From Vampirovibrio sp. (GTDB lineage: Bacteria; Cyanobacteriota; Vampirovibrionia; Vampirovibrionales; Vampirovibrionaceae), in the NCBI GenBank assembly GCA_021323475.1, contig JAJQJM010000002.1, forward strand, positions 1 to 58,578: a stretch of 58,578 nucleotides of DNA, written 5' to 3'. The notes beneath the pieces were generated by a model. That model did no database searches and had not been told where the DNA came from. It saw only the letters and a list, made by a program, of their open reading frames with translations. A program made the position numbers and the translations under genes. Shown here in pieces: positions 12,048 through 57,481 of this stretch; within the stretch, counting starts at the first letter, position 1, and every line of letters starts with the position of its first letter.

Positions 12048-12068
12048 CAAAAAAACAGCAGGCCGTTA

Positions 12069-13746: not shown

Positions 13747-13765
13747 TCCCCTTTATTAAACTATC

Positions 13766-22603: not shown

Positions 22604-23281
22604 ATGTCTCTTACTTATAAGCCGCATCAACAATCCTATAATAACCGACAAGAAAAAAGCCAATACGTTTATGAAAAATATCAGCCGCTTCTGCAAGACT
22701 CCATTTTAGATGTCGGTGCTGACCAATGTTTTTTAAAGGATTTCTTAAAACCAGGCCAGCAATATACCGGCATCGGGATTGGCGGCGCGCCTGATATTGA
22801 GTTTAATCTTGAAAGCGGTCCACTACCGTTTGAATCCGATAGCTTTGACACAGTAATGTGCCTGGATGTGCTTGAACACTTGGAAAATATTCACGCCGCT
22901 TTTGATGAACTCTGTCGAGTTAGCCGCAAGCACGTGATCATCGCGTTGCCCAACCCTTGGTACCAGGTTTGGAATGCAATGCACGGCAGAATATATACCC
23001 CGGAGCAACCCATGGTGCATTATGGCCTTCCTTTGGAAAGACAAGAAGACCGTCATAAATGGTTTTTCAATCATGAGGAAGCCGTCAATTTTGTGCGCTA
23101 CAGAGCCGCTAAAAACAAGATGACCGTTATCCAAATGGATTGGCAAGGCGGACAGGAAGAGAAAAAGTGGAAAAAACGTTTATTCAGACGCTTGTTACTT
23201 GGGAAAAGACATAACCCCCTCAATCTGTTTGCCAGCACCTTATGGGTGGTACTGCAAAAAAACCGGAACAGCAGAACTTAG
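22604..23281 (+). CDS. class I SAM-dependent methyltransferase
   Basis: Motif I reads ILDVGADQCF. VMCLDVLEHLENI is also present. Confidence 0.75.
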   Translation: MSLTYKPHQQSYNNRQEKSQYVYEKYQPLLQDSILDVGADQCFLKDFLKPGQQYTGIGIGGAPDIEFNLESGPLPFESDSFDTVMCLDVLEHLENIHAAFDELCRVSRKHVIIALPNPWYQVWNAMHGRIYTPEQPMVHYGLPLERQEDRHKWFFNHEEAVNFVRYRAAKNKMTVIQMDWQGGQEEKKWKKRLFRRLLLGKRHNPLNLFASTLWVVLQKNRNSRT

Positions 23282-23315
23282 CATCAATAGAAGTAAGCTG
23301 TCAGTAGCAGGATAT

Positions 23316-25094: not shown

Positions 25095-25245
25095 TCCATC
25101 TCTTCGCTCTATGCCGGGTAGACAGCATCAATGCTCGTAAGGTTTATCATAACGCAGTCAACCGACACATCTAAGCTATAAGCATTCATCTGCTCTAAAA
25201 GGAGGTGACCGAAGGGAGAACCTCACTGTGCTGAAGTAATGAGCT

Positions 25246-26637: not shown

Positions 26638-26854
26638 TTTGCTGCGATTTGGAGAACATGCGGGAAACCATAGTTTTCAGGCTCACCCAGTAAGACTTTA
26701 AAACGAACAGAAAACCAAACAAGGAGGCAAGCGCCACTTGAATCACATAACTTCCACTACCAGGATCGATATAGGCCTGCGCAGGCTCGGGTGATATTGC
26801 CATAATGCCGATAATCAGCAATGCCCAGTTGGCCCGTTTTCCAATTTCAGACAT
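26603..26854 (-). CDS. small membrane protein with AYIDPGSGS motif
   Basis: ATG 26854 has AAGGGA upstream. The protein has a hydrophobic N-terminal segment, then AQAYIDPGSGSYVIQ, then a TM helix. It overlaps the next gene by 35 nt. Confidence 0.5.
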   Translation of the reverse strand: MSEIGKRANWALLIIGIMAISPEPAQAYIDPGSGSYVIQVALASLFGFLFVLKSYWVSLKTMVSRMFSKSQQNESATQQSKTQ

Positions 26855-27009
26855 GAAAGTAAATCCCTTTCCACATCGCTTAAGTCTGGTTTTAATATTC
26901 GACAATTTTCATTTGTTTAAATATCAAAACGCACGAGCTTGGTAAGAAATCCAGTAGATACCACGATATTAGGCTATTATTGCATACGCTCTCAATCTGT
27001 TCAAGGAAA

Positions 27010-29148: not shown

Positions 29149-29214
29149 GAAATAAAAACACCTGAAACATCATTCCCAATATTCATCCATATAAACAGCA
29201 CCATTCACGGAAGT

Positions 29215-30000
29215 TCAACCTGCCCGTCTAATCAGTTCAATATCAAAAAAGTAGGCCATCCATGGATTTAATGGTGATAAAAGCCGCTCTACCCTTAAAA
29301 GCAGTGGCATCAACCCGGCTGGTATCAAACTTCGGTAGGTGATACCGCCAGTAATAAAGTAGCTGATCATAGTATGGCGTCGTAAGCGAACTTCAAATTC
29401 AGGAAACTCCTTCTCAAAGAGTGCAATGTCTCTGCAAAATATAATCCACGGCAGAGCCAGATTACTCATACTCAATGGTCCGCCCGGCGGAAGCTGCCAA
29501 TCAGCCGCATGCTCATCATAGGGCTCATGATGAAAATTCTTACGAATCAGCCCACCTAACAAACTATGGTACGGCTCAATCATCAATACTCGGCCACCCG
29601 GTTTCAGTACACGCGCGGCTTGCCGGAAAAACGCCCGGGAATTCGGAATATGATGTAACACGTTTTGCATAAAAATTCCGGAAACCGAAGCATCCTCCCA
29701 CGGTAAGGCATGGGCATCCACTACCTGATCCACGGAAGGAAGAGGCAAGACATCGGTGGTAATCAGCTCCGGCATAAAGTCTTTAGCAAACCCTCCCCCG
29801 GAACCAATTTCAACCATGAGACCACCTGACGGGCACTGCTGGGCACACTCTTTATACTTTTGGTAAAAGCGACTATATACCGTATACAAAGCCTTCTTTC
29901 GCTGGATTAACAACCGATGAAGCTGGGTGGTATCCGGATGATCCTGATCCAATGCCTGAAGCGCAGGTTCTTTTAGAAGTTTCTTAAGCACTTTTACCAT
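29215..30000 (-). CDS. class I SAM-dependent methyltransferase
   Basis: Motif I reads MVEIGSGGGF. LKPGGRVLMIEP is also present. Confidence 0.75.
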   Translation of the reverse strand: MVKVLKKLLKEPALQALDQDHPDTTQLHRLLIQRKKALYTVYSRFYQKYKECAQQCPSGGLMVEIGSGGGFAKDFMPELITTDVLPLPSVDQVVDAHALPWEDASVSGIFMQNVLHHIPNSRAFFRQAARVLKPGGRVLMIEPYHSLLGGLIRKNFHHEPYDEHAADWQLPPGGPLSMSNLALPWIIFCRDIALFEKEFPEFEVRLRRHTMISYFITGGITYRSLIPAGLMPLLLRVERLLSPLNPWMAYFFDIELIRRAG

Positions 30001-30116
30001 ACAAAAACCACAATAGAGACCGTAAACCAGAAGCTATCCTATCCTAAATCCCTATAGGCAAACAGTCAACCAAGGCAAAACAGCAAAATGGCTCACTTAA
30101 GTTGCAACCGCCTTGA

Positions 30117-31889
30117 TTATACCAAGCTCAAACCGTCCGCAGGAGAAAACTGCAGATGGTACAGTTTACTGTAAAAGCCATTTCGCTCCAGCAATTCCGT
30201 ATGAGAACCAATTTCCATAATTTGCCCTTTCACCATAACCACAATCCGACTGGCGTATTTAATTGTGGAAAGGCGGTGCGCCACAATAAAGACGGTTCGG
30301 TTTTTCATGATATCCAACAATGCATTCTGAATCATTTGTTCGGACTCGCTATCCAGAGCGCTGGTGGCCTCATCCAACAATAAAATGGGCGCATCTTTCA
30401 AGAACGCTCTGGCAATAGAGATTCGTTGTTTTTGCCCTCCTGACAACATACCACCCCGCTCACCCACTCGGGTATTCAAACCTTCCGGAATAGAATCAAT
30501 CCAGTCCAGAAGGTATGCCTTGCGAGCCGCTTCATAGACCTCTTCATCCGAAGCCTCCAACCGGCCAAAGCGAATATTATCTGCAATTGTACCGTCAAAC
30601 AAAACCGTATCCTGGGAGACTATCGCAATTTCAGAACGCAATTGTTCGAGAGAAGTGTCACGAAGGTTCACGCCGTTATACAAAACGGCACCGTCTATCG
30701 GATCCAGAAAACGAGGAATCAATTCTATTAATGTTGACTTTCCGCCACCACTAGGCCCAACGAACGCAATCGTTTCCCCTGCCCGAACGGTCAAGTTTAT
30801 ATGCTGAAGTACCGGGACTCCAGGCTTATACTCAAAGTCAAGATTACGGAATTCCAAAGTTTCCAAAGGAGTTAATGGTATCGGATCGTCTGACTGTCGC
30901 ATATCCGGCTTGAGATCCATTTTCTGAAATACCCGCTCCGCCGGAGCTAAAATCCGCTGAATTTTACCCAGAATGGCAGCAATCACCTTTACCGGCTTAT
31001 ATAACAGAACAAGGGCCACCAAGAACGATACAACGTCCCCATGCGTCATGGCTCCGGTTTGAATTTGATAAGTGCTGAGCAAGATAATTCCACTAATACC
31101 CAAGCCGGCAATAAATTGCATAATCGGCTTCAGTATGGTTTCCGACTTGCTGATGCGCATTGAGGTAGAAAAAAATTGGTCCAGCGCTTTTTCAAATCGC
31201 TTTCGTTGAAAATCCTGCCGCTGAAAAGAAAGAATCTCTTTCATTCCAAACAAAGTTTCATAAATGGTATTGACCAACCCCGCGGATACTTCTCGGGATT
31301 GATGATCCAAACGTCGAATTTTCTGACTGATGAAATGCAGCGGCAAGCCAATCATCGAAATAATCAGGATGGCAAAAATGGCCAGCTGCCAATTACGGGT
31401 GAAAAGCACCACCGCCAGAAAAAGCCCCGTGAACAATTGTATGATGAAGCCTTGAAGATTAGTGACAATGGCCTGCTGTAAAGTAGTAGGATCGGTATAA
31501 TATCTGGTAATCAACTCACCGGATGAGTTACGTTTGAAATATCCCAAGTCCATCACAATCAAATGCTGAAATAGCTCTCTACGAATATCGCGAGTAATTG
31601 CAAACCCGATATAGTTCGTAAAGTAATCACTAATATACTCGAATAAACCCTGCATGATCGTGACGATCAAAACAGCTACCGGCAGTAAGAGGATGTATTT
31701 TGCATCCTTACCTTGGATCATTGCATCCAGAAAAGGACCAATCATCCAGGCGATTAAACCATTCAGCGAAGAAGCCGGTACAGAAGCCAACAATGACCAT
31801 ATAAAGCGCGTTTTATACGGCTTAATATAGCCCAGCAAACGGACGTAAAGTTTTTGATCCTTCTTGGGGTTCGATTGAGGGTTCGACAT
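30117..31889 (-). CDS. ABC exporter, fused permease/ATPase, MsbA-like
   Basis: A six-TM N-terminal domain precedes Walker A GPSGGGKST, signature LSGGQKQR and Walker B ILLLDEATSALD. Confidence 0.9.
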   Translation of the reverse strand: MSNPQSNPKKDQKLYVRLLGYIKPYKTRFIWSLLASVPASSLNGLIAWMIGPFLDAMIQGKDAKYILLLPVAVLIVTIMQGLFEYISDYFTNYIGFAITRDIRRELFQHLIVMDLGYFKRNSSGELITRYYTDPTTLQQAIVTNLQGFIIQLFTGLFLAVVLFTRNWQLAIFAILIISMIGLPLHFISQKIRRLDHQSREVSAGLVNTIYETLFGMKEILSFQRQDFQRKRFEKALDQFFSTSMRISKSETILKPIMQFIAGLGISGIILLSTYQIQTGAMTHGDVVSFLVALVLLYKPVKVIAAILGKIQRILAPAERVFQKMDLKPDMRQSDDPIPLTPLETLEFRNLDFEYKPGVPVLQHINLTVRAGETIAFVGPSGGGKSTLIELIPRFLDPIDGAVLYNGVNLRDTSLEQLRSEIAIVSQDTVLFDGTIADNIRFGRLEASDEEVYEAARKAYLLDWIDSIPEGLNTRVGERGGMLSGGQKQRISIARAFLKDAPILLLDEATSALDSESEQMIQNALLDIMKNRTVFIVAHRLSTIKYASRIVVMVKGQIMEIGSHTELLERNGFYSKLYHLQFSPADGLSLV

Positions 31890-32028
31890 GAGACGCAAGG
31901 TGACCTTTCGTGCTTATGTGTATTGTACCCCAAACCCGCAGAAAGGCATGATGTCAAAGGATACAGGAGTCCATCCAGTAACGTAGCCGCCTTCCAAATC
32001 CACTTGAAGGCTGGCTACAATGCCCAAG

Positions 32029-33570
32029 TTAATGACCAGTTACCTTACAGTCGGCCTTGTCACTCATATCATAAAACGCATATGGCCGACGAGGATATAT
32101 AAAATATTGCTTATCAGGCAAGTCCGTATAATCCATGCCGTAATAGTAGCTCAACACCCGGCGAAATGTATTGACTGGTGTAATCGTGGGATAGACGACA
32201 TTGAACTTGTTGTCAGCTCCATTGCCGGGCAGATAATAAGCGTTCAAAATAGATAGACGCTCCTGAATATAGGATGGAGTCCAGCCATCAGTAAGATTAC
32301 CGGTAAGAGGAGTGCCATGATCCCCCTGAATGATGATGATAGGAGGTGTTTTGGAATGCGCCAGAATTTGGTCGATAATCTTGATAATACGATGGTTCAG
32401 ATAAACAAGCTGATCATTAAACGCCGCCTTCAGCATGACCTTATCTTTGGAGTAAGGATCCACCGATACGGGATTACCATTATGATCAAAGTGGAACGGT
32501 GGATGCGGGCTGATAACGTGAGAAAAGACGAATTTAGGCCCTGAAATCTGAGGAACCTCTTCTTCCAACTGTTGCAGCGAATGAAGAATATGCTTGCGGA
32601 GCGTTGTGTAATATAAGTCATTTTTCCAATACTTGGATAGCAGGGTTGTTTCCATAAATTCCAATGGAAACTCGTCGGCAGGGCCAACGAGGTTAATATC
32701 CGCATTTACATTTTTCTTAAATGGAGGAGACCAGCTTCCGACATGCACATACTTGTAGCCCATCTGTTTCAGGATTCTTTGAAGGTCATAATCCTTGAGC
32801 ATATCAGTGTAAACTGAGTAATCATTCGTTTTATCTTTATAGGTCTTCTCTAAATAATTTAAATACTTGAAGTTCAAGGACGAAGACAGTGAAAGAAAGG
32901 TTCGCGGGTAATTACTACAACTTTTAGGAGCCACGTAAAATCCCCTACGCTGTAACGCATCCACAAAAGATTTATTTGAACCGTCCAACAAACGTTCGAT
33001 AATGTCAGCCCGCGGATAAGCGTCAAAAATCATGTAATACACATCGGGTTTTTGCCCGTGCAAAACGGCAGCAAGCCGGCCTTTGATCGCCTCTTCCGAT
33101 TTAGAATGAGACACGTGGGCAGCGTTGCCAGCCATATAAGCGCCGACTGTCACACCGCTCATCACCAATAATGCAATCGAGAAAAACGTTAAAAAACGAG
33201 TTACCGGCTCCAGGCTGGCTTTAGCTCGAAACGCATAAAAACACCCTAGTGCCACAAGTACGCCCTGAAACAACAAAACTTTGTCACTGTTAATTGAAAT
33301 ACCGTATGCCTGCTTCAGTTCATTATGCAAACCCAACAGGTGCCCATAAGCAAAAAATAGAAAAATCAAAAGCGAAGTAACGAACGCTGCGCGCCGCTTA
33401 TCTGAGATAATAATACCCAGCAAGGCATAGATTAACAGTACACCCCCTAATGATAGCGCCAACGGCACCAGGATATCCGTGAAAGGCGTTTCATCCAGAC
33501 TGACTGAATACAGGTATAGGACAGGATAGGCCGCAAAAAACAAGGGATGTAGAGGCGCTTTACGATGCAT
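32029..33570 (-). CDS. second membrane-anchored sulfatase-fold protein
   Basis: An N-terminal TM block is followed by a domain containing IIIQGDHGTP. Confidence 0.6.
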   Translation of the reverse strand: MHRKAPLHPLFFAAYPVLYLYSVSLDETPFTDILVPLALSLGGVLLIYALLGIIISDKRRAAFVTSLLIFLFFAYGHLLGLHNELKQAYGISINSDKVLLFQGVLVALGCFYAFRAKASLEPVTRFLTFFSIALLVMSGVTVGAYMAGNAAHVSHSKSEEAIKGRLAAVLHGQKPDVYYMIFDAYPRADIIERLLDGSNKSFVDALQRRGFYVAPKSCSNYPRTFLSLSSSLNFKYLNYLEKTYKDKTNDYSVYTDMLKDYDLQRILKQMGYKYVHVGSWSPPFKKNVNADINLVGPADEFPLEFMETTLLSKYWKNDLYYTTLRKHILHSLQQLEEEVPQISGPKFVFSHVISPHPPFHFDHNGNPVSVDPYSKDKVMLKAAFNDQLVYLNHRIIKIIDQILAHSKTPPIIIIQGDHGTPLTGNLTDGWTPSYIQERLSILNAYYLPGNGADNKFNVVYPTITPVNTFRRVLSYYYGMDYTDLPDKQYFIYPRRPYAFYDMSDKADCKVTGH

Positions 33571-33815
33571 TCACTGATTTACCTTTTGGAGTTTTCGGAT
33601 TGCACGATGGGGGACATGACTACTTATGTCAGGCTATAAAGTGAGGATTATGAATTATTACATCCTGACAATTGCCCATTGGCTATCTAATCGCTATTGA
33701 TGGGCAGATATCGGTTGAATACCAGCATAGCCTTGTTCATAGTACCAGAAGCCAAAGGCGAGTACAAATGCGCGACTTGGACTCACTTACAAAAGACCTC
33801 ATCTATCCACCTCCG

Positions 33816-33829
33816 GCTTTTGCAAAAGC
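33816..33829. promoter_or_regulatory. 14-bp perfect palindrome in a divergent intergenic region
   Basis: The sequence is GCTTTTGCAAAAGC, ~90 nt upstream of the GT2 gene. Confidence 0.2.
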
Positions 33830-33914
33830 GGCGCTCTCGATTATAGCAAACAGCCCCTAAGTATTTGCTTCCAGACCAAGCGTGCATAAATGTTTTTACA
33901 CTATAATTGTCTGT

Positions 33915-34799
33915 ATGAAACCGTATGTGTCTTTCTTAATCCCCTGTTTCAATTATGCCCGGTATCTGCGTGAGTGTCTGGACAGCATTCTGAACCAGAG
34001 CTTTACAAATTTTGAAGTTCTGATCCTTGATGATGCTTCTACCGACGAAACCCCTGAGTTGGCCCGAGAGATAGCCGCTACAGATTCAAGGGTTCAGTAT
34101 TATCGCCATGAAAAAAACATCGGCCACCTGAACAATTATAATTTCGGTATCCAAAAGGCTCAGGGCGAGCTAATCTGGCTTATCTCCGCCGATGATTACC
34201 TGGCGTCCGGCACGATTTTAGAATCCTTTACCCAACAGTTTCAGGCCCACCCTCAACTGGGTTATGCGTTCTGTCGCGTTCAATGTATGGATGAGCATTC
34301 CAACCCCTACCCCAAATTCATCCCTCGCCTCGAAGAAAAGTCGCTTTCAAGCGAGCCCCACCTGTATCCCGGCAGGGCCTTATTTCGCGAGCTGGTAAAG
34401 GGCAATTTTATTCCCGCGCCAAGCGTACTGGCCCGAAAAGCCTGCTACCAGCAGTATGGTCACTTTCATTCCGAACTCACCCATAGTGGAGACTGGTACA
34501 ATTGGCTGCTCTTTTCGTTGGACTGGGACGTCTATTACGATCCCGAACCCAAAGTGTATTACCGCAAACACAACCAGAACATGCACATGACTTACCAGAA
34601 GCCCCGCCACGCTCTGGATAATTCCCTGCTTTGCTATTTAGAACTGGAAAAATTCCTGAAAAAACACCAATATCCGGCAGTGTTACTGCGCAGCGCTTAT
34701 CTGGCCAAGCTTTACTTCATGAAAAAGAACGGGTATCCCGTATCGCCCTTGGGCAAGTTGTTCCTACTGTATGGAAAAATGATGAGGCATCTTGCCTGA
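33915..34799 (+). CDS. glycosyltransferase family 2
   Basis: The N-terminal region reads SFLIPCFNYARYLRECLDSILNQSF..ILDDASTDET. I preferred ATG 33915. The ORF is open from GTG 33882. Confidence 0.85.
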   Translation: MKPYVSFLIPCFNYARYLRECLDSILNQSFTNFEVLILDDASTDETPELAREIAATDSRVQYYRHEKNIGHLNNYNFGIQKAQGELIWLISADDYLASGTILESFTQQFQAHPQLGYAFCRVQCMDEHSNPYPKFIPRLEEKSLSSEPHLYPGRALFRELVKGNFIPAPSVLARKACYQQYGHFHSELTHSGDWYNWLLFSLDWDVYYDPEPKVYYRKHNQNMHMTYQKPRHALDNSLLCYLELEKFLKKHQYPAVLLRSAYLAKLYFMKKNGYPVSPLGKLFLLYGKMMRHLA

Positions 34800-48031: not shown

Positions 48032-48275
48032 ATAGTGGATATAACGCCTATGGTACTACAAAATTACCAATCCGCCTGATTCGCTCCCGGCATTGCAAGT
48101 CCGCCCACTGAATTCTTTTTATATCCTTACATCGCGCTTCACAGTAATCGAGCGGTATTTCCCAACGGGGACAATGATGGCATACGGCTCAGGAATATCT
48201 TTTTTAATTTATACAAAAAATTAAATAGCATCTTTCCTGCGGGAAAAAAAGGAATGTTTCTTTTCATAGAAAAAC

Positions 48276-48304
48276 TTGCTTATATTTTTGGGGTTCTATA
48301 TAAT
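48276..48304 (+). promoter_or_regulatory. sigma70-type promoter of the PrkA module
   Basis: TTGCTT (48276-81), 17-nt spacer, perfect TATAAT (48299-304), within an AT-rich 440-bp intergenic region. Confidence 0.55.
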
Positions 48305-48317
48305 CTCTCCGAACATC

Positions 48318-48356
48318 AAAAGTAAGTATCCATTTTTTATTTTTGCACTTACTTTT
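48318..48356. promoter_or_regulatory. 10-bp perfect inverted repeat just downstream of the promoter (operator or 5'-UTR hairpin)
   Basis: AAAAGTAAGT (48318-27), 19-nt spacer, ACTTACTTTT (48347-56). Confidence 0.4.
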
Positions 48357-48471
48357 TACTGAATGAATTAAATAAGTGGGTTTATAGGCAAGAGAAGAGA
48401 ACTTGCATTTAGTTGCTATTTGTCAGTCCTCGCCATGCTAAGAGACAACCGTATTTGAAGGGGAATACCTT

Positions 48472-50886
48472 ATGATTAACCTCACCACGTTTTCGGGCGT
48501 CAATCGTACGCAGCTACAAACACGTAAAAAAACCGAATCCAAACAGAAACCGGAAGCCCAGTCTCACGCTTCAACCGGCCCTAAAACCCTATTGGCAAAG
48601 CCCTCTGCCGGGCTTGCAAAAGTCTACTTTGGCGGCGTCAATCTGTCGGATGCCATTAAAGGCAGCAGCGAAGTCGCCAAACCCCAGCAACTCAAATCCG
48701 TGATGTCCATTCAGGACTATGTGGACACCATTGAGCAGCATCCACTGTTGCTAAGAAACACCGCCCAATATGCCCAGGACATGATCAACCGGGAAGGTGT
48801 CCGTAAAAAAACCAAGTACGGACGCGACATTCTGGAATACGATTTTTTTACTCACCCTCAAAACCCCGAAATGAAAGGCTTAAAAGGCAATCAGGGCTCC
48901 ATTAACGATGTGATGATGCACATTCGTGCCGCCGCCAGACGGCAGGATTTGGGCAAAAAACCCATTGTACTCATGGGGGGCCCCGGTTCCGGCAAAACCA
49001 GCATCGGTGATTTGATGGTGGACGGCTACGTGCGTTACAGCAAAACCGATGAAGGCGCTCGTTACGCCTCCAAATTGGTGAATCTGCCTGAAGATTTACG
49101 GATGGGTGAGGAATACGTAGAAGAAACCCTGGCCGATCCGTTGCTGTTTTTACCTCAGGAAATTCGTAAACAGGTGGTCAATTCCGCCAAACCCAAATTT
49201 GAAAAATTAAAACAGGAAGTCACCAAAGCCGAGGCGCAGAATGGCTCCGTTCGTCCCAATCTGTACGATTATGAAGTGGGCATTGAAGGCGACTTAACGC
49301 CGAAAACTCAATACATTATGAAACATCTGCAAAACATGTACCTGGATCAGGCCATTAAAATGCAAGGGCTGGACCGGGATGAACTGGAATCCGAGCCTGG
49401 CCAAAAACGCCTGGTAGACCTAAAGCGGCAGGCCTATCACAAAGCGCTGAAAAATCATTTGCAGGTCTATAAGTTCGAATACAATCCCAACGCGGTACCG
49501 GGTGGTATCGGCGTGTTTTCCGCAACGGATTCCAAAACGCTGAACACTGCCAAAATTAATGGCCAGGTCAACATGGTACGGCTGATGGATCTGCCGGAAA
49601 GCGATCCCCGCCGGTACGACTATGTGGACGGAGCCGCGTTCCGGGCCAATCGGGGCGTATTCCGCCTAAAAGAAATGCACAAAAACCCCGAAGCCTTCTA
49701 TCCGTTATTGCTGGACTTGGCACAAAGTCAGTTGATTGAGGTAGAAAGCGGCAACGCCACGGTACACAGTCTGATTCTGGCGGATTCCAACTTCCCGGAA
49801 CTGATTGAAAAGAAGGGCAAAGACGTGCTGACTGCCGCCATGAAGCGCCTGGATCACATTTATGTCACTCACCCGCTGGAGTTGTCTGCGGAAAAAGAAA
49901 TCCAGCACAGCCTGTTCGCGGACTTTGAAAAAGCAACGGGCGCACACGGCAAAAAAGGCCACGTAGCGCCACACACCAAAGACATTGCCGCATTGCTTGC
50001 CGTCATGTCCCGTCTCACAGTTCCAGAAGACAAATTGACGGAAGGTCCCGCGTTCCTGGCCAAAAAAGCCGCCGCCTATAACGGCGACGTGGTGGAAGGC
50101 ATTGAAGAGCAGGAAGTGAACGAATGGTATGAAAAAGGCCAAAAGGCTGATGATATCGAGCAGAAAGAAGGAATGGACGGCCTGTCGGTTCGGGAGATGC
50201 AAACCCTGACTAACCTGGTGACCAACGACCTGAACGTGCGTGATCTGAATTCCATTGACGGGTATGGTTATCTGCGCATTGTGCGCGATGTGCTGGAAAA
50301 GAACCGGCTGACCCTTTCCGATGAGATCAAGGAAAAGTCCCTGAACCTGCTGGGTGTGGCCGAACGGCAACTGGATGATCGCGTCAAGGGTGACGTGACC
50401 GAGGCATTGGCCGGTGATCCGTCTTATATGCAAAACATTTTTGATGCCTACCTGACCAACGTGATTGCCGAGAAGCGGGGCAAACGGGTGAGAGATCCGC
50501 TGACCAGCGAAATGGTGCCACCCGATAAGGACTTGATGGAAGACATTGAAAAACGCATGGGCCTGACGACTTATAACGATCGGCGCCAGTATCGGGATAG
50601 CCTGGCGGCGCGGGTCGGGATGCTAACCATGGAAGGACGTAAATACGAACTGGATAATGATCCGAAACTGAAGAAAGCGATTCTGGATCGGGCATACGCC
50701 AGAACGGTGGATCGGATTGACTCCAAAGTGCTGCTGACGTCTCATCCGAACCAGCGGGAAAAAGAACAACAAAACACGCTGGTGCAGCGCTTAATTGCCA
50801 GAGGATATAACGAGCTTACGGCCAATAACGCGCTGGCTCGCGTCAGCATGTTGGCCAAACGCGATCCGAAAATCCTGAACTCGTAG
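48472..50886 (+). CDS. prkA: PrkA-family AAA+/serine-kinase-like protein, paralogue 1 (804 aa)
   Basis: Walker A is GGPGSGKTS. FRANRGVFRLKEMHKNPEAFYPLLLDLAQ aligns with the YeaG segment CRANQGIMEFVEMFKAPIKVLHPLLTATQ. GAAGGGG RBS lies upstream. Confidence 0.85.
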   Translation: MINLTTFSGVNRTQLQTRKKTESKQKPEAQSHASTGPKTLLAKPSAGLAKVYFGGVNLSDAIKGSSEVAKPQQLKSVMSIQDYVDTIEQHPLLLRNTAQYAQDMINREGVRKKTKYGRDILEYDFFTHPQNPEMKGLKGNQGSINDVMMHIRAAARRQDLGKKPIVLMGGPGSGKTSIGDLMVDGYVRYSKTDEGARYASKLVNLPEDLRMGEEYVEETLADPLLFLPQEIRKQVVNSAKPKFEKLKQEVTKAEAQNGSVRPNLYDYEVGIEGDLTPKTQYIMKHLQNMYLDQAIKMQGLDRDELESEPGQKRLVDLKRQAYHKALKNHLQVYKFEYNPNAVPGGIGVFSATDSKTLNTAKINGQVNMVRLMDLPESDPRRYDYVDGAAFRANRGVFRLKEMHKNPEAFYPLLLDLAQSQLIEVESGNATVHSLILADSNFPELIEKKGKDVLTAAMKRLDHIYVTHPLELSAEKEIQHSLFADFEKATGAHGKKGHVAPHTKDIAALLAVMSRLTVPEDKLTEGPAFLAKKAAAYNGDVVEGIEEQEVNEWYEKGQKADDIEQKEGMDGLSVREMQTLTNLVTNDLNVRDLNSIDGYGYLRIVRDVLEKNRLTLSDEIKEKSLNLLGVAERQLDDRVKGDVTEALAGDPSYMQNIFDAYLTNVIAEKRGKRVRDPLTSEMVPPDKDLMEDIEKRMGLTTYNDRRQYRDSLAARVGMLTMEGRKYELDNDPKLKKAILDRAYARTVDRIDSKVLLTSHPNQREKEQQNTLVQRLIARGYNELTANNALARVSMLAKRDPKILNS

Positions 50887-50898
50887 GGGACTGAATGG

Positions 50899-52884
50899 AT
50901 GATGCCCACAGTGATTCCTCCCGGTTACGGGAGTATTCCTAAACCCGGCGTTGCAGGCATTGCCAAGACGCCCAAAAAGCCGAAGCCCGTGCCGCATGGT
51001 ATGGAGCAAACCCATGTCAGCCCGCCTCGTACAGGTGGAATGGACGCGCTTTCCGCCTACAATCGCACACGGTTGAAATCGGTTCATCCAAGATTTAAAG
51101 GCTCGGAGGGGGTAGGGCGTTATCCGTTTGATCAGGTGGATATACGGCTGGGCACACACCCTGATACCCCCTATTTGAACAAGCTGGATCACTGGATGCG
51201 CAAGGTCTGGGAAGAGGCCACCAAACCGCGCCCCGGCTTTGAAAACGGCTGGCTGCAACCGATGGATACCCTGTTTCAGGTATCAAATCAGGTGGACCTG
51301 ATGGAGGCTGCCGCCCGGAGCGGTTTCCCCACCCGCTACCGCCATTGGTCCTGGGGCCAGGATTTCAACAATCAGTACCAGCGCCAGCGGTTCGGCCTGG
51401 GACGCTTGTATGAAATGGTCATCAACACCAACCCGTCCTATGCGTTCTTATATGATCGCAACCCGGTTTACGCCCAAAAGGTGGTAATGGCCCACGTATT
51501 GGGGCATACGGACTTTTTCAGAAACAACGTCATGTACTCGGAAACCAACCGGAACATGGTACGGGTTATGGCCGACCACAAGGCCAAAATTGAGCGTTAT
51601 TATCAGGATCCACGCCTGTCCCGTACAACGCAAGGCGGAGTGCATCCGGTAGAAAAATTCCTGAACAAATTCAACGCGTTGGAATGGCTGGTGGACATGA
51701 ACGCGTTATCGCCCCCACCGTTGGAATCGGAAAAAGCGCCTGAACACCGGGAAGAGGACGACTTCGGCAAAGTCGGTGTTAATACTAAAAAATTGGGTGT
51801 CGCCCCTTGGATGCAGGACTTTCTGTATACCAACAAGGCATGGCAAAAGTACCGGAATGATACGATTCAGGAAGGGGACGCCACCCATGCCAAAACGCTG
51901 AAGCAGCCCACCCGCGATATTCTGGGTTTTCTGGTGGAAAACGCCAAGGTGTTGCATCCGTGGCAGCAGGATATTTTACGCACCCTGCGGGAGGAGTCGT
52001 ATTACTTCGTTCCGCAGGTGCGCACCAAACTGATGAACGAAGGCTGGGCCACCTTCTGGCACCATAAGCTGATGAACGATTGCCCCAGCCTGATCGACGA
52101 ATCCGAAACCACGGATATCGCCAAAAAGATGGCTGGGGTTGAAGCGCCTTCCCAGAATGGGATTAACCCATACCAGGTCGGGTATGCTATTTTCCAAAAT
52201 ATTTACGATCGGGCCGCATACGGATTGGATGATTTTGACACCACCTTCCAGCCCAATAAGACCATTAAATACAAAGACCTGCGGGACCGGATGGAGCATA
52301 CTAAGCCCAACGAAGAAGCCGGATTGAAAAAAGTGCTGGACGTTCGAAAACAGTATAACGATGTGGAATTCATTCGCACGTTCTTCACGCCGGAAGTCGC
52401 CGAAAAGCTGGGCATGGTAGTGACCAACGAACGAGAGGAATGGGATTCCCGAATGGGTCAGCGGGTCAAAGTGAAATTCGTGGAGTCGGACGATTTCAAC
52501 CAATTGAAATCGATGATTCTGGCCCAGTACCAGAACATGTTTCCCACGCTTAGTTTAGTAGACGCCAACCACAATAATCAGGGTGAATTGCTCATCAAGC
52601 ATGAAAACACGGTACAGGATTTGGACTTACAGGATACAAAAGAAACGCTGGCCGTGCTGAATGAATTCTGGGGACATCCCATTCACCTGGACACCATGTT
52701 TGAGGTGGAGGGGGATGTGCCGCCACCAAGGCCGAACCCATGGGGCTTTGGCTTTATTGAGCCGGAGGTTCCGGAGTTTAAGCGCCAACCGGTTCGGCTG
52801 TCTTATAAAAACGGGAAAATGCAGATGTTTACCTTGTCCAAGGACGGTAAGCCCCTCAAAAACATTACGGATAAATATTTATAA
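50899..52884 (+). CDS. spoVR: SpoVR/YcgB-family protein (661 aa)
   Basis: AHVLGHTDFFRNN and YYFVPQVRTKLMNEGWATFWH are present. GGGGA RBS lies upstream. Confidence 0.85.
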   Translation: MMPTVIPPGYGSIPKPGVAGIAKTPKKPKPVPHGMEQTHVSPPRTGGMDALSAYNRTRLKSVHPRFKGSEGVGRYPFDQVDIRLGTHPDTPYLNKLDHWMRKVWEEATKPRPGFENGWLQPMDTLFQVSNQVDLMEAAARSGFPTRYRHWSWGQDFNNQYQRQRFGLGRLYEMVINTNPSYAFLYDRNPVYAQKVVMAHVLGHTDFFRNNVMYSETNRNMVRVMADHKAKIERYYQDPRLSRTTQGGVHPVEKFLNKFNALEWLVDMNALSPPPLESEKAPEHREEDDFGKVGVNTKKLGVAPWMQDFLYTNKAWQKYRNDTIQEGDATHAKTLKQPTRDILGFLVENAKVLHPWQQDILRTLREESYYFVPQVRTKLMNEGWATFWHHKLMNDCPSLIDESETTDIAKKMAGVEAPSQNGINPYQVGYAIFQNIYDRAAYGLDDFDTTFQPNKTIKYKDLRDRMEHTKPNEEAGLKKVLDVRKQYNDVEFIRTFFTPEVAEKLGMVVTNEREEWDSRMGQRVKVKFVESDDFNQLKSMILAQYQNMFPTLSLVDANHNNQGELLIKHENTVQDLDLQDTKETLAVLNEFWGHPIHLDTMFEVEGDVPPPRPNPWGFGFIEPEVPEFKRQPVRLSYKNGKMQMFTLSKDGKPLKNITDKYL

Positions 52885-52919
52885 CAATTCACGCATTCGC
52901 GAACCATAGGTAACTCGCA

Positions 52920-54944
52920 ATGACCAGCATGACGCCAACCAGTTCCGCCACATCGCTGTTGCGGCCAGCCATTGAAAAACGCCTCCACACAAAGTCGGTT
53001 AAATTCAAAGGTGATGAGCCTGCCAAACCGATCGAACAAACATCAAACGATCGATTTTCCGCAACGTCAACAGATTCCGTAACCGTCGTTGCAAAACCGG
53101 AGCCTCATCCCCATACGCCTCAGGCCTCGCCTTGGCTGAAAGTGCTGGATGACATGCTGGAAAATGCGCATGCGGAACAAGAGGAAATCAACGGCATTCC
53201 GGTGGCGGAACTGATTTATATGCGGGAAAAAATCCGTCGGGCACCCAAAATCGCCCCCGTTGACGAGCAAGGCAAGGTTCGAGAATTACACCCCTGCCCG
53301 TTACCGGGTCAGCCTTCCCAACTGTGGGCCATGCTGAGCCGGGACACCATTGGCTCCGATCACCCGGATTCCAAACGGTTCTGGGATATTATCGACGGCA
53401 AAAACACGCCGAAAGATATGCTGGATAAAATTTCCAAACGGCAGGTTAAAATCGGCCCCAAGGGGCAAATCAGCTTTCCCTCCCCTAATATCAAGCGCCC
53501 GCGGATTTGGTGGGGACAGCCAGGCTCCCAGCAAAGCAAACGGGGACAGCAAGGTAAAAACGGTCAGCCGGGCCAAGGCCAGGGAATCGGCTCACATCCC
53601 GGTAAAAAAGCGGGCGACGTGATCGGCAAACGACCGGCCAAGGGCGGCAAGGGAGCCGGGCGAGAAGGCGAAGCCGGAGAAGGCGCAGGCGATTACCCGA
53701 AAGAACTATGGACGCCGCCGGTGCCGCGTTCGCAGGTAGCCAAGCTATTACAATCAGAATGGGGGCTGCCCTTCATCGAACCGCGCGGCAAGGGAAAAAT
53801 GAACCAGTTTCAGGAGTTTTGGGATCAAACCACTACGACGCCGCCCAATCTGGTTGAAAAATACCCGACGTTGAAAAACGCCATTCAACGTTCATTCGCC
53901 AAAGCCTGGTACGACAAGCCAATGAGCATGACCGAGCGCATCCGCAACGGCATGCATCCGGGCTCAGCGGCCATTCCAATCAAAGAAATACAGATTCAGG
54001 GCAACACCCTGGTGGGCAAAAAAACATTGGACAAAGCGATGGAGGAATTTCAGGGAAAAGACCTGACTTACGAGGATTTAACCAAAATCCTGACCCGTCT
54101 GGATCAAAAATATCAGGCGGCCGGTTACCCAACATCCAAGGCCATTATTCCGCCGCAACCACTGGATTCCCAGAAGCTGGTGGTTGATGTGCGCGAAGTG
54201 CGTGACACGTTTAATCCCAGGGATATTCAGGTTCACTCCAAAGATAAAGTTCGCATTGCCGCCCGTGTGGCGCCCAAGCCGGTGGCTAAAACGGCCATTC
54301 TCTACATTATGGATGTATCCGGTTCGGTCAGTAACGACATGAAGGAAATGGCACGGGTGCAGAATTATTTTCTGGATACGCACCTGATGTACCAGTATGG
54401 GTTGGTAGCCGCCCAACTGGCCAACGAAAAATACGATGACAAAAAACACTTCGGGCAAGGCGTGGTACGCCGGTTTATCGTGCATACCGATGGAGCCGAG
54501 GAAACCACCGAGGAGGAATTTTACACCACCGGGCAATCCGGCGGCACCAAAATTTCTTCCGGCTTTAAATTAGCCAAGGACATTATTGAAAAAGACTTCC
54601 CAAAGGATGAATGGAACATTTACGTGTTCTACCAGGGTGACGGAGACAATTACCAAAGCGATAACGACACCAGCATCAAACTGATGAAAGATCTGCTGGA
54701 GGACGGTGTCAATATGATTGGCTATACCCATTTAGCCCCGTATTACGAAGGCAGCACCTCCAACTCCGACGGGCTGAACCGTTGGAATTTTTACGGAGAG
54801 GTTCAGAAGCATCTGGGCGATCGCCAAAACGTTAGAACATCCATTCTGCATCGCCCGGAAATCCAGGAGTACAAGCAATCGATTCAGCGTCTGTTGGAAG
54901 AAAGCAAAAGTGGAGAAACCAAGAGCGGAGCGAAAAAGTCATGA
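52920..54944 (+). CDS. yeaH: YeaH/YhbH (DUF444, vWA-like) family protein with inserted POTRA-like module (674 aa)
   Basis: A Gly-rich GQPGQGQGIGSHPGKKAGDV..GEGAGDY tract is followed by the MIDAS-like IMDVSGSV and by GQSGGTKISS and YQGDGDN. Confidence 0.85.
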   Translation: MTSMTPTSSATSLLRPAIEKRLHTKSVKFKGDEPAKPIEQTSNDRFSATSTDSVTVVAKPEPHPHTPQASPWLKVLDDMLENAHAEQEEINGIPVAELIYMREKIRRAPKIAPVDEQGKVRELHPCPLPGQPSQLWAMLSRDTIGSDHPDSKRFWDIIDGKNTPKDMLDKISKRQVKIGPKGQISFPSPNIKRPRIWWGQPGSQQSKRGQQGKNGQPGQGQGIGSHPGKKAGDVIGKRPAKGGKGAGREGEAGEGAGDYPKELWTPPVPRSQVAKLLQSEWGLPFIEPRGKGKMNQFQEFWDQTTTTPPNLVEKYPTLKNAIQRSFAKAWYDKPMSMTERIRNGMHPGSAAIPIKEIQIQGNTLVGKKTLDKAMEEFQGKDLTYEDLTKILTRLDQKYQAAGYPTSKAIIPPQPLDSQKLVVDVREVRDTFNPRDIQVHSKDKVRIAARVAPKPVAKTAILYIMDVSGSVSNDMKEMARVQNYFLDTHLMYQYGLVAAQLANEKYDDKKHFGQGVVRRFIVHTDGAEETTEEEFYTTGQSGGTKISSGFKLAKDIIEKDFPKDEWNIYVFYQGDGDNYQSDNDTSIKLMKDLLEDGVNMIGYTHLAPYYEGSTSNSDGLNRWNFYGEVQKHLGDRQNVRTSILHRPEIQEYKQSIQRLLEESKSGETKSGAKKS

Positions 54945-57481
54945 TTACCTTACCGCCATCCCTGAACGTAATACCAGCTAAAAAGCAGGTCCGGAAATCC
55001 CTTGGTACTCCACCGACACCTATCTCGAATGCCCCTCGGCCAAGTTCGCGCACTTTGCAAAAGGACACGGTGCAGTTTTCCGGGCAACACCCGAAAGCTG
55101 ATGCCGCCGAGCAAACCAAGGCGGGTCAATATGTAGATAATCTGCTGGATCAATGCGATCAGCAGACCACTGTTCAACGAATGACGCTGCGGGATTTCCT
55201 GCTGAACTCCAAACTGGAGCCCAAGCGTTATTTACCGACCGCCAGTTCATATGTGCTGGATGCATTCGATTATTACGATAAGCCAGGCGGACCGCAGCAG
55301 GTAACCGTGTATGGCGAGCCCATGCGTCGTTTCAATATTATGAACACGCCCTGGAACAATCACCTGTCGAACCCAGCCCGTATCTACGGTCATGAGCCAA
55401 CCGTCAATCGCATATGGGAAATTTTGCGCTCGTTTAAACAACAACCGAACGCGGATCGGGGTATTGCGCTGTTTGGCCCGCATGGCAGCGGCAAAAGCGT
55501 TATTGCCAAATCCCTGATGACGGGCGTGGAAAATTTTTCCAGGCAAGATGAGGGGGCCTTATGGACCTATTCCTTTGTGTTTCCGGACGGACAAAAAGTA
55601 AAGGCCCAGCCCAAGGATGAGGCTGATATCTGGATGCAGGACGTGGCAGATGGTAAAACGCTGATGGAGCCGGATAAAATTGCGGCCCAATTGATGGCGA
55701 ACCTCAATTTAAATCCTATTTTCTTGTTGCCTCCTCAGCAACGCACCGCCTTTTTACAGGATTTGAAAAAAGAAGGCAAAATTGAGCCCGATTTTAATAT
55801 TGACTATTATCTGAAAGCGAACCTGGAAGGCAATGCCCAGCGCATTTTAAACAAGTTGCACCACTTGTATAGCGAAGATCCCAAAAAATTCCAGAAAACG
55901 ATGGAGCACATCCAGGTGGAGCGCTGGACCATGTCCGCACAGGACTACCGAGGACTGGTGGAAGTGCCGGCCTCCCGCAACCCGGACGCGGTGATGCGGG
56001 AAATTCCCGGTGAGCATCCGCTGGCCAAAGCGCCGGATTTGGTAAAAACTGCCGGGAAACGGGCATTGGAAGGACTCATGCCTCGCGCCCATCGCGGTAT
56101 TTTTTACATGGATGATTTCGGCCGTAACGGCATGCCGTTCGATCATTTGCTGATGCCGCTGGAAACGGGAGAAGTGACCATTCAAGAATTGCACGGACCT
56201 GGCATTACCAAGGAATTATTGGACTTTGTGCCCTTGTTGTCCGTAAACCCGGAAGTGTTGGAACGCACCAAACAGCACGGCAATTTTGACGCATTGGAGC
56301 AGCGCATGCTGTTTGTTCCGGTTCCCTTTGAGCGCCGCTATAAAGTGGAATCCCAGGTCATGGCGCCAATTTTAAACCATGCCAAGGCCCTTGGTAAAAA
56401 AATCGCGCCGGACACCCTGGAATCCTTTGCCTTGTGGGTGGCCATGAGCCGCATGTTCCCCATCGATAAAAATTACCAGCCCTACCAGGAAATCAGCAAA
56501 AACAACAAGGATTTTGCATCCGCGCTGAGCAAGCTGACGCCATTAGGCAAAGCCCTGCTGTACCAGGGCGAGGCTGTTCCCGGCCTGTGCGCGGATGAGC
56601 AGGAAGCCCTGGTGGAAAACCTGAAAACCATCGCCGGAGAGCATAACCAATCTTTGGGAGAAACGGAATTTACGCTCTATGAAGGTGGGGTCGGCATGTC
56701 GAATCGGGCGGCCACGAACGTGCTGAAACGAGTAACAGCCCGGCACGACAATGAGCCTATCAGTTTTTTGGACATGTTTGAGGCCATTGCCAGGTACGCC
56801 GGCAATAAACCCCAATACGAAATGAAGCGCGCCCAAATTCTGAAGGACAAGGGTAAAACCATTCCATTTCAATCCGGGCTGGAACTGCTGAGAGAGGTTG
56901 AAGATTTTCAGCGGCAGAAATTCATGAAGCAGCTGAAGGATGCCTTGGGCATGTACCAGGACCCGTCCGTTTACGCCCAGCGCATCCAGCAATACGGGGA
57001 TCATATCGCCGCCATGCAGGAAGGAAAGTCGGTGCCTCCGCGTTCCCAAGTGGACGGTGACCCCAAACCCAGCCGGCGATTGATTCTCAGTTTCGAGCAA
57101 ACCGCTCACCCGGATAGGCGATTAACTGATAGCGAGCGCAAAGCGTATCGTACCGATTTTTTGGCCCGCGCAATCGATTGGGACACGGATCTGCCGGATG
57201 AGGAGAACGTCACCCAGATCTATCAGAATGAAATGAGTCGGTTACGCACGAAAGACGAGCAGGAAAACAAGCAATACTTGACCGAGTTCCGCAATAACGT
57301 CAAAATCCTGCTCAAGGACCCGCAAGCCTTTGAGCCCCAAAAGGGCCTGCCTTCCACCCAGAGGTTGGAAAATGCGCTAAAAACGCTGGGCGATATGGGC
57401 TACAGCCCGGAAGTGCTGCCGAAAATTCTGGATTGGGCCTTGGAACACCGTTACGTGGCCGAACAGGTCAAATCGCAATAG
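54941..57481 (+). CDS. prkA: PrkA-family AAA+/serine-kinase-like protein, paralogue 2 (846 aa)
   Basis: Walker A is GPHGSGKSV. AHRGIFYMDDFGRNGMPFDHLLMPLETGE aligns with the PrkA core. The start forms an ATGA overlap with the yeaH stop. Confidence 0.8.
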   Translation: MITLPPSLNVIPAKKQVRKSLGTPPTPISNAPRPSSRTLQKDTVQFSGQHPKADAAEQTKAGQYVDNLLDQCDQQTTVQRMTLRDFLLNSKLEPKRYLPTASSYVLDAFDYYDKPGGPQQVTVYGEPMRRFNIMNTPWNNHLSNPARIYGHEPTVNRIWEILRSFKQQPNADRGIALFGPHGSGKSVIAKSLMTGVENFSRQDEGALWTYSFVFPDGQKVKAQPKDEADIWMQDVADGKTLMEPDKIAAQLMANLNLNPIFLLPPQQRTAFLQDLKKEGKIEPDFNIDYYLKANLEGNAQRILNKLHHLYSEDPKKFQKTMEHIQVERWTMSAQDYRGLVEVPASRNPDAVMREIPGEHPLAKAPDLVKTAGKRALEGLMPRAHRGIFYMDDFGRNGMPFDHLLMPLETGEVTIQELHGPGITKELLDFVPLLSVNPEVLERTKQHGNFDALEQRMLFVPVPFERRYKVESQVMAPILNHAKALGKKIAPDTLESFALWVAMSRMFPIDKNYQPYQEISKNNKDFASALSKLTPLGKALLYQGEAVPGLCADEQEALVENLKTIAGEHNQSLGETEFTLYEGGVGMSNRAATNVLKRVTARHDNEPISFLDMFEAIARYAGNKPQYEMKRAQILKDKGKTIPFQSGLELLREVEDFQRQKFMKQLKDALGMYQDPSVYAQRIQQYGDHIAAMQEGKSVPPRSQVDGDPKPSRRLILSFEQTAHPDRRLTDSERKAYRTDFLARAIDWDTDLPDEENVTQIYQNEMSRLRTKDEQENKQYLTEFRNNVKILLKDPQAFEPQKGLPSTQRLENALKTLGDMGYSPEVLPKILDWALEHRYVAEQVKSQ

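Follow-up and report, generated by a model that had tools for sequence, protein, structure and literature searches.

An enlarged PrkA-SpoVR-YeaH module with two PrkA paralogues in Vampirovibrio, a candidate protein-remodelling machine linked to proteolysis

A stretch of 58,578 nucleotides (nt) from Vampirovibrio sp. (Vampirovibrionales, Melainabacteria; contig JAJQJM010000002.1 of assembly GCA_021323475.1), hereafter the window, carries on its plus strand four adjacent genes in the order PrkA-1, SpoVR, YeaH (DUF444) and PrkA-2. Judged from sequences and predicted structures, these genes probably constitute an enlarged, lineage-specific form of the PrkA-YeaH-SpoVR starvation/dormancy module, which would act as an AAA+/vWA protein-remodelling machine linked to proteolysis. 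The first gene (48472-50886) encodes PrkA-1, a divergent member of the canonical PrkA/YeaG branch of 804 amino acids (aa), with an AAA+ module and a PrkA C-terminal domain. It is followed by genes for a SpoVR/YcgB homologue of 661 aa (50899-52884) and a YeaH/YhbH homologue of 674 aa (52920-54944), the latter consisting of a tail, a clade-specific segment, the DUF444 N-region, a POTRA domain and a vWA domain. The last gene (54941-57481) encodes PrkA-2 (846 aa), which falls in another, deeply separated branch, termed "long PrkA". PrkA-1 and SpoVR are separated by 12 nt and SpoVR and YeaH by 35 nt, YeaH and PrkA-2 share an ATGA overlap, and a purine-rich Shine-Dalgarno-like stretch lies upstream of all four starts. 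The module is probably a single, translationally coupled operon. A prediction made earlier from the letters of this DNA alone (hereafter the original prediction) had given the reading-frame coordinates, gaps and overlap, the gene order, and the Walker A motifs GGPGSGKTS and GPHGSGKSV in the two PrkA proteins; the coordinates, gaps and overlap were all exact, the order recurs in related contigs, and both motifs are conserved in orthologues.

The same four genes were found in the same order in seven related contigs (loci L001, L003, L004, L005, L007, L008 and L009), where both PrkA proteins have about 802-863 aa, SpoVR 655-678 aa and YeaH 652-697 aa. The genes flanking the module are unrelated among these seven loci. 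The module is thus conserved by vertical descent in this clade as a unit complete in itself, and the conserved order and coupling amid different flanks bear out the claim of the original prediction that it is a distinct, elaborated variant. In the window and in all seven related loci, the YeaH and PrkA-2 genes either abut or share 1-4 nt. At three further loci, termed outgroups by sequence distance only, this junction is a 4-nt overlap (L010), a 2-nt gap (L013) or an 8-nt overlap (L018). The nearest named relatives of PrkA-1 among species-representative genomes belong to a Vampirovibrio chlorellavorus metagenome-assembled genome (MAG; L001, 72% identity) and to a "Candidatus Melainabacteria" MAG. 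A collection of 5.8 billion proteins contained about 16 close homologues of PrkA-1 (65-99% identity, 802-810 aa), beyond which identity falls abruptly to 28%, in ordinary PrkA proteins of 631-646 aa. A tblastn search with PrkA-2 gave no match among the PLSDB plasmids. The module goes unmentioned in the V. chlorellavorus genome paper, and no paper linking Melainabacteria to PrkA was found. Locus L002, from a second Melainabacteria MAG, was left out because its module genes are fragmented. At positions 7788-16471 of that locus, the module is split into shorter open reading frames (ORFs) of 559, 501, 204, 166, 166, 271 and 531 aa, probably by assembly frameshift errors rather than by real decay.

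The PrkA/YeaG-YeaH-SpoVR/YcgB trio is among the most widespread bacterial modules that still have no mechanism, and the recent literature is divided between PrkA as a kinase, as a protease and as an ATPase only. In most bacteria yeaG, yeaH and ycgB belong to a single operon, and strong cofitness links them in six species (Price et al., 10.1101/072470). The original prediction had described the window as departing from the model arrangements of E. coli and B. subtilis. The departure holds for the gene order and for the second PrkA; the contrast with those two species, however, is misleading, since the trio is one operon in most bacteria. The possible novelty of two PrkA genes in a four-gene cluster did not stand either, because all haloarchaeal genomes contain two adjacent PrkA-related genes, always together with DUF444 and SpoVR genes (Anderson et al. 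2011, PMC3102087). The haloarchaeal cluster, compared here by its published description, resembles the window module in combining two PrkA with DUF444 and SpoVR, in being lineage-wide and in having no assigned function. Its two PrkA genes are adjacent, whereas those of the window bracket SpoVR and YeaH, and N-terminal tails, a POTRA domain or a linkage to ClpP are not reported there. No description was found of the bracketing order, of tails bearing the motif, of the POTRA insertion or of operons extended by ClpP genes, all treated below, and these features appear to be without precedent. The tail motif, the POTRA domain and the ClpP genes had not figured in the original prediction.

With YeaG-YeaH-YcgB of E. 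coli and PrkA-YhbH-SpoVR of B. subtilis, the window module has in common the families PF08298 and PF06798 (PrkA), PF04285 (DUF444) and PF04293 (SpoVR), the clustering of the genes, the Walker A motif of the ATPase and, in YeaH, the vWA domain with its metal-ion-dependent adhesion site (MIDAS); the role in starvation or dormancy is presumed to be the same. It differs from the E. coli system in the added second PrkA, in the order prkA-spoVR-yeaH-prkA instead of prkA-yeaH-spoVR, and in proteins that are 150-250 aa longer and only 24-26% identical to YeaG and YcgB. Motif-bearing tails, the POTRA domain of YeaH and a clade-specific YeaH segment of about 75 aa are further additions. All four module proteins stay far below the NCBIfam equivalog cut-offs set for their E. 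coli and Bacillus counterparts.

The link to proteolysis comes from the sister lineages. The nearest outgroup YeaH (P0150, 37% identity) is encoded at L010, where the order is PrkA (797 aa), SpoVR (742 aa), DUF444 (583 aa) and PrkA (937 aa), followed by two ClpP-family genes (370 and 299 aa). L013 and L018 have the order PrkA-SpoVR-DUF444-PrkA-ClpP, followed by a gene for an M17 leucyl-aminopeptidase. The ClpP gene overlaps that of PrkA-2 by 14 nt at L010 (first copy) and by 4 nt at L013, and starts 42 nt downstream of it at L018; the regions concerned, after PrkA-2, span 14549-16590 of L010, 12727-15669 of L013 and 12680-15849 of L018. In the first ClpP-like protein of L010 and in that of L013, the contexts of the catalytic Ser, His and Asp are kept (GxAAS[CM]G, HQP and ERD). 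The second L010 copy is without the catalytic Ser and resembles a ClpR subunit. The coupling of a PrkA gene to ClpP-family genes, at least two of which have an intact triad, provides genomic support for a link between PrkA and proteolysis. We found no earlier description of PrkA operons extended in this way.

The second line of evidence lies in the N-termini. Compared with canonical relatives, all four proteins carry N-terminal extensions of about 55-75 aa (PrkA-1), 100-118 aa (SpoVR), 148 aa (YeaH) and 75-80 aa (PrkA-2). Across eight close loci these tails are hypervariable and rich in Pro, Ser, Thr, Gln and Lys, and one short element is always kept, with the common form [basic/hydrophobic]-x-F-[G/S/A]-G. 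In PrkA-1 the element is V-Y-F-G-G (aa 51-55, 48622-48636), within the sequence LA[KR][VIL][YH]F[GA]GVNL that is invariant in eight orthologues, while the preceding 45 aa are unalignable. SpoVR has P-R-F-K-G (aa 64-68, 51088-51102), conserved as [KR]F..G in eight orthologues and in L010, L013 and L018, frequently after L.AY. YeaH has V-K-F-K-G (aa 27-31, 52998-53012), which follows [VP][RKH]F[GSTK]G across the eight close loci, with PRFTG, VRFGG, PRFSG, PKFGG, VHFGM and LQFGT as its equivalents in orthologues. PrkA-2 has V-Q-F-S-G (aa 44-48, 55070-55084), or [VIL].F[SATR]G across the same loci. Since the motif stays in frame in orthologue tails that are otherwise unalignable, the extensions are real and translated. 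The original prediction had noted both the greater length of the proteins and such extensions on all four; the extra length is, however, also internal in PrkA-1, YeaH and SpoVR, and C-terminal in SpoVR.

All 48 operon proteins of the 11 loci have an F-centred motif (F then G, S or A, mostly F-x-G) within their first 90-100 aa. The outgroup operon proteins, including every ClpP-like protein, all have it, many of them two or three times. In its strict form, [RKHQYL]F[GSA][GA], it occurred within the first 90 aa of 32 of the 48 proteins, and its density in the tails was 33 times that in the remainder of these proteins, with a Fisher p of about 1e-23 that is indicative only, as the sequences are related. 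It was found in 5 of 104 N-termini of canonical PrkA, in 5 of 79 proteins of a 750-aa PrkA class, in 0 of 14 canonical DUF444 proteins, and in only 7 of 45 long (at least 840 aa) PrkA-2-like representatives. Some distant PrkA-2-like representatives show, by eye, L..Y.G[VI]RF[GSA]. The tails of YeaH and PrkA-1 are disordered in AlphaFold2 (AF2) models, and the tails alone matched no Pfam or NCBIfam model. A prepilin signal or a double-glycine leader was considered by eye and rejected, because the Gly at -2 is unconserved and the hydrophobic spacing differs. Such motif-bearing tails on every protein of this module appear to be undescribed. That no component is without the motif suggests that the proteins are physically assembled or processed together.

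Outside the module the motif is rare. The only other window protein with such a tail is a class-II glutamine-amidotransferase-like protein (GATase_4, E = 4.7e-19; 18817-19914, plus strand), whose N-terminal tail of 31 aa ends in SPRFG right before the Cys expected as the N-terminal nucleophile (Ntn); R29-F30-G31-C32 is encoded at 18901-18912. Orthologues with tails of 27-31 aa were found at L003 (20168-21214, minus strand; APRFG before the Cys) and L008 (20704-21729, minus strand; TTRFG before the Cys), in both cases 1-2 kb downstream of the module. The same two loci encode, divergently and just upstream of PrkA-1, a conserved protein of 68-70 aa (L003 9156-9362 and L008 9153-9365, both minus strand). 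Its sequence follows MR..(T/S)FG[YC]AG[RK]WSP...AVQQAA...NQ[ED]YYQAAQ, with the motif at the extreme N-terminus, and no counterpart was seen in the 440-nt gap upstream of the module in the window. A few small operon-adjacent proteins of other loci begin with the motif, and L018 also encodes a 125-aa protein starting MQISKAMGPNPRFSGKW. At L005, a response-regulator/GGDEF protein encoded 6.5 kb upstream of the module (1942-3459, plus strand) starts with ...KQQASNQFSGSGV. This is possibly a further copy of the tail motif, though as a single observation it could be due to chance.

The tails could alternatively be cleavable propeptides. The F-x-G element would then mark a processing site, and inactive precursors would be matured by a lineage-specific protease or on assembly, for which the N-terminal extensions of ribosomal protein L27 and of the capsid and scaffold proteins of phage 80alpha, cleaved by Prp, provide a precedent. 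In the GATase_4 protein the motif is located exactly at an obligatory cleavage site, because the Cys must become the N-terminal nucleophile, and the tails in the window, L003 and L008 all end in [PT]RFG immediately before it. Genes for ClpP-family and M17 peptidases are also at hand in the sister operons. Ntn hydrolases, however, mostly process themselves and commonly have a Gly before the nucleophile, which may partly explain the match of RFG to the position before the Cys. The two or three copies of the motif in many tails fit multivalent binding better than a single cleavage site, and in PrkA-1 the motif continues directly into conserved sequence (GVNL..AI). We therefore regard the propeptide explanation as improbable.

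PrkA-1 matched the Pfam families AAA_PrkA (PF08298, 90.4 bits) and PrkA (PF06798, 113.7 bits) above the cut-off of 25 bits. Against NF011999, the NCBIfam equivalog of E. coli YeaG, it scored 85.8 bits, short of the cut-off of 576, and it is 24% identical to YeaG. By its sequence, PrkA-1 is a member of the PrkA/YeaG family but not a YeaG equivalog. It matched a solved PrkA homologue of 692 aa (PDB ID: 9xip, E = 5e-45), with aa 60-200 aligned to residues 29-169 and aa 343-789 to residues 258-683. Beyond the solved homologue, PrkA-1 therefore has the tail and about 55 inserted residues within the region of aa 200-343. A search for open papers on this structure (9xip/9xiq/9xir) gave none. In the Walker A motif (aa 169-177, 48976-49002), G169, G172, G174 and K175 are invariant or nearly so. 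The strand equivalent to the canonical NRG..EF.E (NRG-h-h-E-F-h-E) reads NRGVFRLKEMHK. The first Glu of this strand is replaced by Arg throughout the Vampirovibrio-type clade, with the second acidic residue kept, and is retained in the PrkA-1 proteins of the outgroup loci. In the AF2 model of PrkA-1 (predicted template modelling score 0.71), the tail (aa 1-72) was disordered, with a predicted local distance difference test value (pLDDT) below 50. The top Foldseek neighbours of this model were HslU, ClpC1, LonC and ClpA, and NorQ was also matched.

PrkA-2 is quite different from PrkA-1, as the original prediction had held in calling the two paralogues divergent. The two proteins are 22% identical in pairwise comparison, and in the tree alignment PrkA-2 is 19-20% identical to canonical PrkA and to PrkA-1. 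It passed the same Pfam cut-off with 45.1 bits for PrkA (PF06798) and 35.5 bits for AAA_PrkA (PF08298), and a score of 23.4 bits against NF011999 places it outside the canonical branch. In a neighbour-joining tree of 618 columns, the PrkA-1 clade groups with canonical PrkA/YeaG, and the PrkA-2 clade with the tail-less 750-aa class. A word-indexed search with PrkA-2 returned only 16 clade members. An exhaustive profile search returned 597 cluster representatives, 159 of them below 1e-30, the nearest of 850-1013 aa and the next a large class of about 735-765 aa. By this phylogeny PrkA-1 and PrkA-2 are ancient paralogues, PrkA-2 belonging to the separate deep branch. The PrkA-2 Walker A motif (aa 179-187, 55475-55501) is invariant from G179 to S186 in 13 orthologues. 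The Walker-B-like strand GIFYMDDFGR (aa 386-395, 56096-56125) is of the classical hhhhDD form, with G386, F388, Y389, D391, D392, G394 and R395 invariant, and aa 371-416 match a Mg_chelatase/ChlI-type AAA domain.

The weak Pfam scores of PrkA-2 (45 and 35 bits), together with 23 bits against the YeaG equivalog, might suggest that one PrkA copy is a redundant recent duplicate or, as the original prediction had considered, a decaying pseudogene. However, more than 13 species have an intact PrkA-2 ORF (53-87% identity), and 13 of the orthologues share about 190 invariant columns, those of the Walker A motif and the Walker-B strand among them. Its branch is populated, and the tree indicates ancient paralogy. 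PrkA-2 is therefore neither a pseudogene nor a recent duplicate, and the chance that either copy is one appears negligible; judged from conservation, both PrkA copies are under purifying selection.

It is worth considering whether PrkA-2 is functionally independent of PrkA-1, being co-transcribed for co-regulation only and forming its own homo-oligomer, with ClpP as its partner in the sister lineages and with no hetero-oligomeric PrkA machine. PrkA-2-type genes stand alone, without SpoVR, DUF444 or PrkA-1, at L012, L014 and L015 (the last from a Melainabacteria MAG), and PrkA-2-type proteins can therefore work without PrkA-1. The gene coupled to ClpP in the sister operons is that of PrkA-2, not of PrkA-1, and an identity of 22% makes a mixed ring uncertain. 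On the other hand, the overlap or abutment of YeaH and PrkA-2 is kept throughout the window clade, and close spacing is also found in the outgroups. The tail motif of PrkA-2 is common to the other three module proteins and is lacking in the stand-alone homologues. The substitutions at the ATPase sites are moreover complementary, PrkA-1 of the clade being without the canonical Walker-B-region Glu and PrkA-2 having the classical hhhhDD, so that two ancient PrkA branches are retained together with complementary changes. We consider full independence of PrkA-2 conceivable but rather unlikely. The hetero-oligomeric PrkA machine suggested in the original prediction is compatible with the sequence data.

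Another explanation concerns the activity itself. Both PrkA proteins might be atypical Ser/Thr kinases with different targets, YeaH and SpoVR being accessory, and the module would then reprogram metabolism in starvation. YeaG has been reported to autophosphorylate and to phosphorylate substrates, and a conserved YeaG-YeaH-YcgB signalling pathway has been proposed (Price et al., 10.1101/072470). The source databases label the homologues "serine protein kinase", and PDB entry 9xip is named likewise. No kinase activity was found, however, for PrkA of B. subtilis or B. anthracis (PMC9512850, PMC13001217). The catalytic features conserved in the window proteins (Walker A, the Walker-B strand) are AAA+ ATPase features, PrkA-1 has unfoldases as its structural neighbours, and what the sister operons add are ClpP and M17 peptidases rather than phosphatases or substrates of a kinase. 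A signalling kinase is therefore quite improbable in our view, all the more so than a PrkA-2 acting on its own.

YeaH is the component with the most altered architecture. It matched DUF444 (PF04285) with 142.5 bits, above the gathering cut-off, and missed all NCBIfam equivalog cut-offs. By alignment and an AF2 model (mean pLDDT 67.6), the protein begins with a tail that is disordered (aa 1-66). A folded segment of about 75 aa, specific to the clade, comes next (aa 70-148), and is followed by the N-region known from canonical DUF444, including its Gly/Gln-rich stretch (aa 149-335), by the POTRA domain (aa 353-425) and by the vWA domain (aa 440-660). Relative to canonical proteins there are an insertion of about 100 aa that contains the POTRA domain and one of 19 aa inside the vWA domain. 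The POTRA domain (53976-54194) matched PF08479 (POTRA_2, 58.2 bits against a cut-off of 24, E = 7.6e-16) and PF07244 (E = 2.8e-5). Its AF2 model shows the beta-alpha-alpha-beta-beta fold at a pLDDT of 88-94, and the segment matched the TpsB4 POTRA structure (PDB ID: 2mhj, E = 4e-4). The domain is limited to about 13 close YeaH orthologues and is absent from the outgroup YeaH proteins of 583-596 aa and from canonical DUF444 proteins. In profile and fold it resembles the POTRA domains of TpsB/Omp85 transporters and FtsQ. Unlike in those proteins, it is single and located between the DUF444 N-region and the vWA domain. Pfam, the AF2 model and the sequence revealed no beta-barrel or transmembrane domain in YeaH, whose N-terminus is hydrophilic and disordered, and no signal peptide was seen by eye, without a dedicated predictor, so that nothing indicates a periplasmic POTRA domain. 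YeaH thus appears, by its predicted features, to have gained a cytoplasmic POTRA domain, seemingly an undescribed one.

The vWA domain of YeaH (54237-54899) has an intact MIDAS, with D465-x-S467-x-S469, T543 and D574 in invariant alignment columns. Foldseek matched it to CMG2/ANTXR2, integrin I domains, the MIDAS domain of Rea1/MDN1 and NorD of NorQD, with E values of about 1e-4 to 3e-7. An AAA+ motor encoded beside a MIDAS-containing vWA protein is also the arrangement of NorQ-NorD, CbbQ-CbbO, RavA-ViaA and Rea1, and the model matches of YeaH to NorD and Rea1 are paralleled by that of PrkA-1 to NorQ among others. PrkA, however, is not of the MoxR family and has a large C-terminal domain of its own, and SpoVR has no counterpart in these systems. 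The SpoVR protein of the window matched PF04293 with 310 bits over aa 119-546, above the gathering cut-off, and SpoVR_C with 25.5 bits, just below the cut-off of 27.6. It scored 166 bits against the equivalog NF008737 (cut-off 679), is 26% identical to E. coli YcgB (E = 7e-39), and has insertions at internal positions as well as about 60 additional aa at its C-terminus.

In the mechanism that we propose, the PrkA ATPases would be protein-remodelling or unfolding motors of the HslU/Clp/Lon kind, and YeaH would be their MIDAS-bearing partner or adaptor, by analogy with the other AAA+/vWA pairs. The output would be regulated protein turnover or remodelling under nutrient stress. In the sister lineages a ClpP-type peptidase is encoded in the operon right after PrkA-2; in the window clade the peptidase is no longer in the operon. 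The shared tail motif may be a signal by which all the parts are recruited or assembled, and possibly also a site of processing. Extended peptides are bound by POTRA domains via beta-augmentation, and the one that YeaH acquired in this clade is a candidate receptor for the extended tail peptides by such beta-strand augmentation. Compared with the Clp/HslUV-type proteases, the likeness lies in the sister-operon ClpP-family gene with its triad, coupled to the gene of PrkA-2, and in the structural neighbours of PrkA-1 (HslU, ClpC1, ClpA and LonC). The differences are that no IGF/IGL-type docking loop was identified and that the sister ClpP-like proteins have 299-426 aa with tails and large insertions; the window operon, moreover, has no ClpP gene in it or next to it.

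Several observations weigh against this mechanism. No ClpP gene was found in the window operon or elsewhere in the 58-kb window. The reported ATP-dependent, Lon-like protease activity of B. subtilis PrkA (PMC9512850) speaks for the mechanism, but a protease role for PrkA is contested, because pure B. anthracis PrkA showed ATPase activity and no protease activity (PMC13001217). The Foldseek similarity of PrkA-1 to unfoldases is weak (template modelling score about 0.2-0.37), and the replacement of the Walker-B-region Glu in PrkA-1 may mean that its ATPase is altered. The statistics of the tail motif count related, non-independent sequences. The AF2 monomer models leave the tails undocked on any domain, including the POTRA domain and the PrkA N-domain. 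The tails also predate the POTRA insertion, the outgroups having tails without POTRA; the POTRA domain is therefore not a universal tail receptor, and that candidate role was rejected.

A more far-reaching version can be formulated, in which the tails are an unrecognised targeting or processing signal of the Vampirovibrionia, and the proteins marked by it either join one dedicated proteolytic dormancy machine or are matured by it. In that machine PrkA-2 would act as unfoldase and feed a ClpP-like ring, with PrkA-1, YeaH and SpoVR as regulators. The marked set would comprise both PrkA proteins, SpoVR, YeaH, the ClpP-like peptidases, the Ntn amidotransferase-like enzyme and a few small proteins. 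We put this version forward tentatively, as a long shot; the composition of the set is equally speculative. If it were true, the dispute over kinase or protease would be settled in favour of an unfoldase/peptidase partnership. The clues from this lineage prove no mechanism, but they turn the open questions into direct experiments.

An anti-phage defence system was also considered for the module and rejected, because the PADLOC defence models gave no match other than two chance-level P-loop matches (E about 0.007-0.009).

The only sizeable gap in the module is an AT-rich, non-coding stretch of 440 nt upstream of PrkA-1 (48032-48471), presumably the promoter region. Direct reading of this gap showed TTGCTT-N17-TATAAT at about 48278-48306; a scan for consensus promoters gave no significant match in it. 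Neither the promoter nor the terminator scan was informative. The former gave 10 promoter-like sites against 11.4 expected, which is chance level; terminator-like sites were found 29 times against an expectation of 16.6 +/- 4.9, somewhat more than by chance, but mostly inside coding sequence and none at a gene boundary.

The remaining part of the window includes a gene for an 856-aa protein (14178-16748, plus strand) with no Pfam match and a signal-peptide-like N-terminus. Its start is conserved (PVNT.NDGR.V.GG.YYNT..GKTTFTNSGSGGLWV), and it resembles an 868-aa protein of L003 (6463-9069, plus strand) that is encoded directly upstream of the module there; the window protein is possibly a secreted adhesin or a two-partner-secretion-type substrate. 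Positions 22000-34000 have a G+C content of 0.44-0.48, compared with about 0.51-0.55 elsewhere. They contain minus-strand ORFs, several of them for multi-pass membrane proteins, and are flanked by genes with N-termini that look, by eye, like those of sugar-modifying enzymes or glycosyltransferases. From these features the region looks like a surface-polysaccharide island. At 5677-13130 on the minus strand lies a run of six genes whose N-termini, read from the translations only, resemble those of arginine-biosynthesis enzymes; one of them contains ...VVLAYSGGLDTT, which, on the translation, is typical of argininosuccinate synthase.

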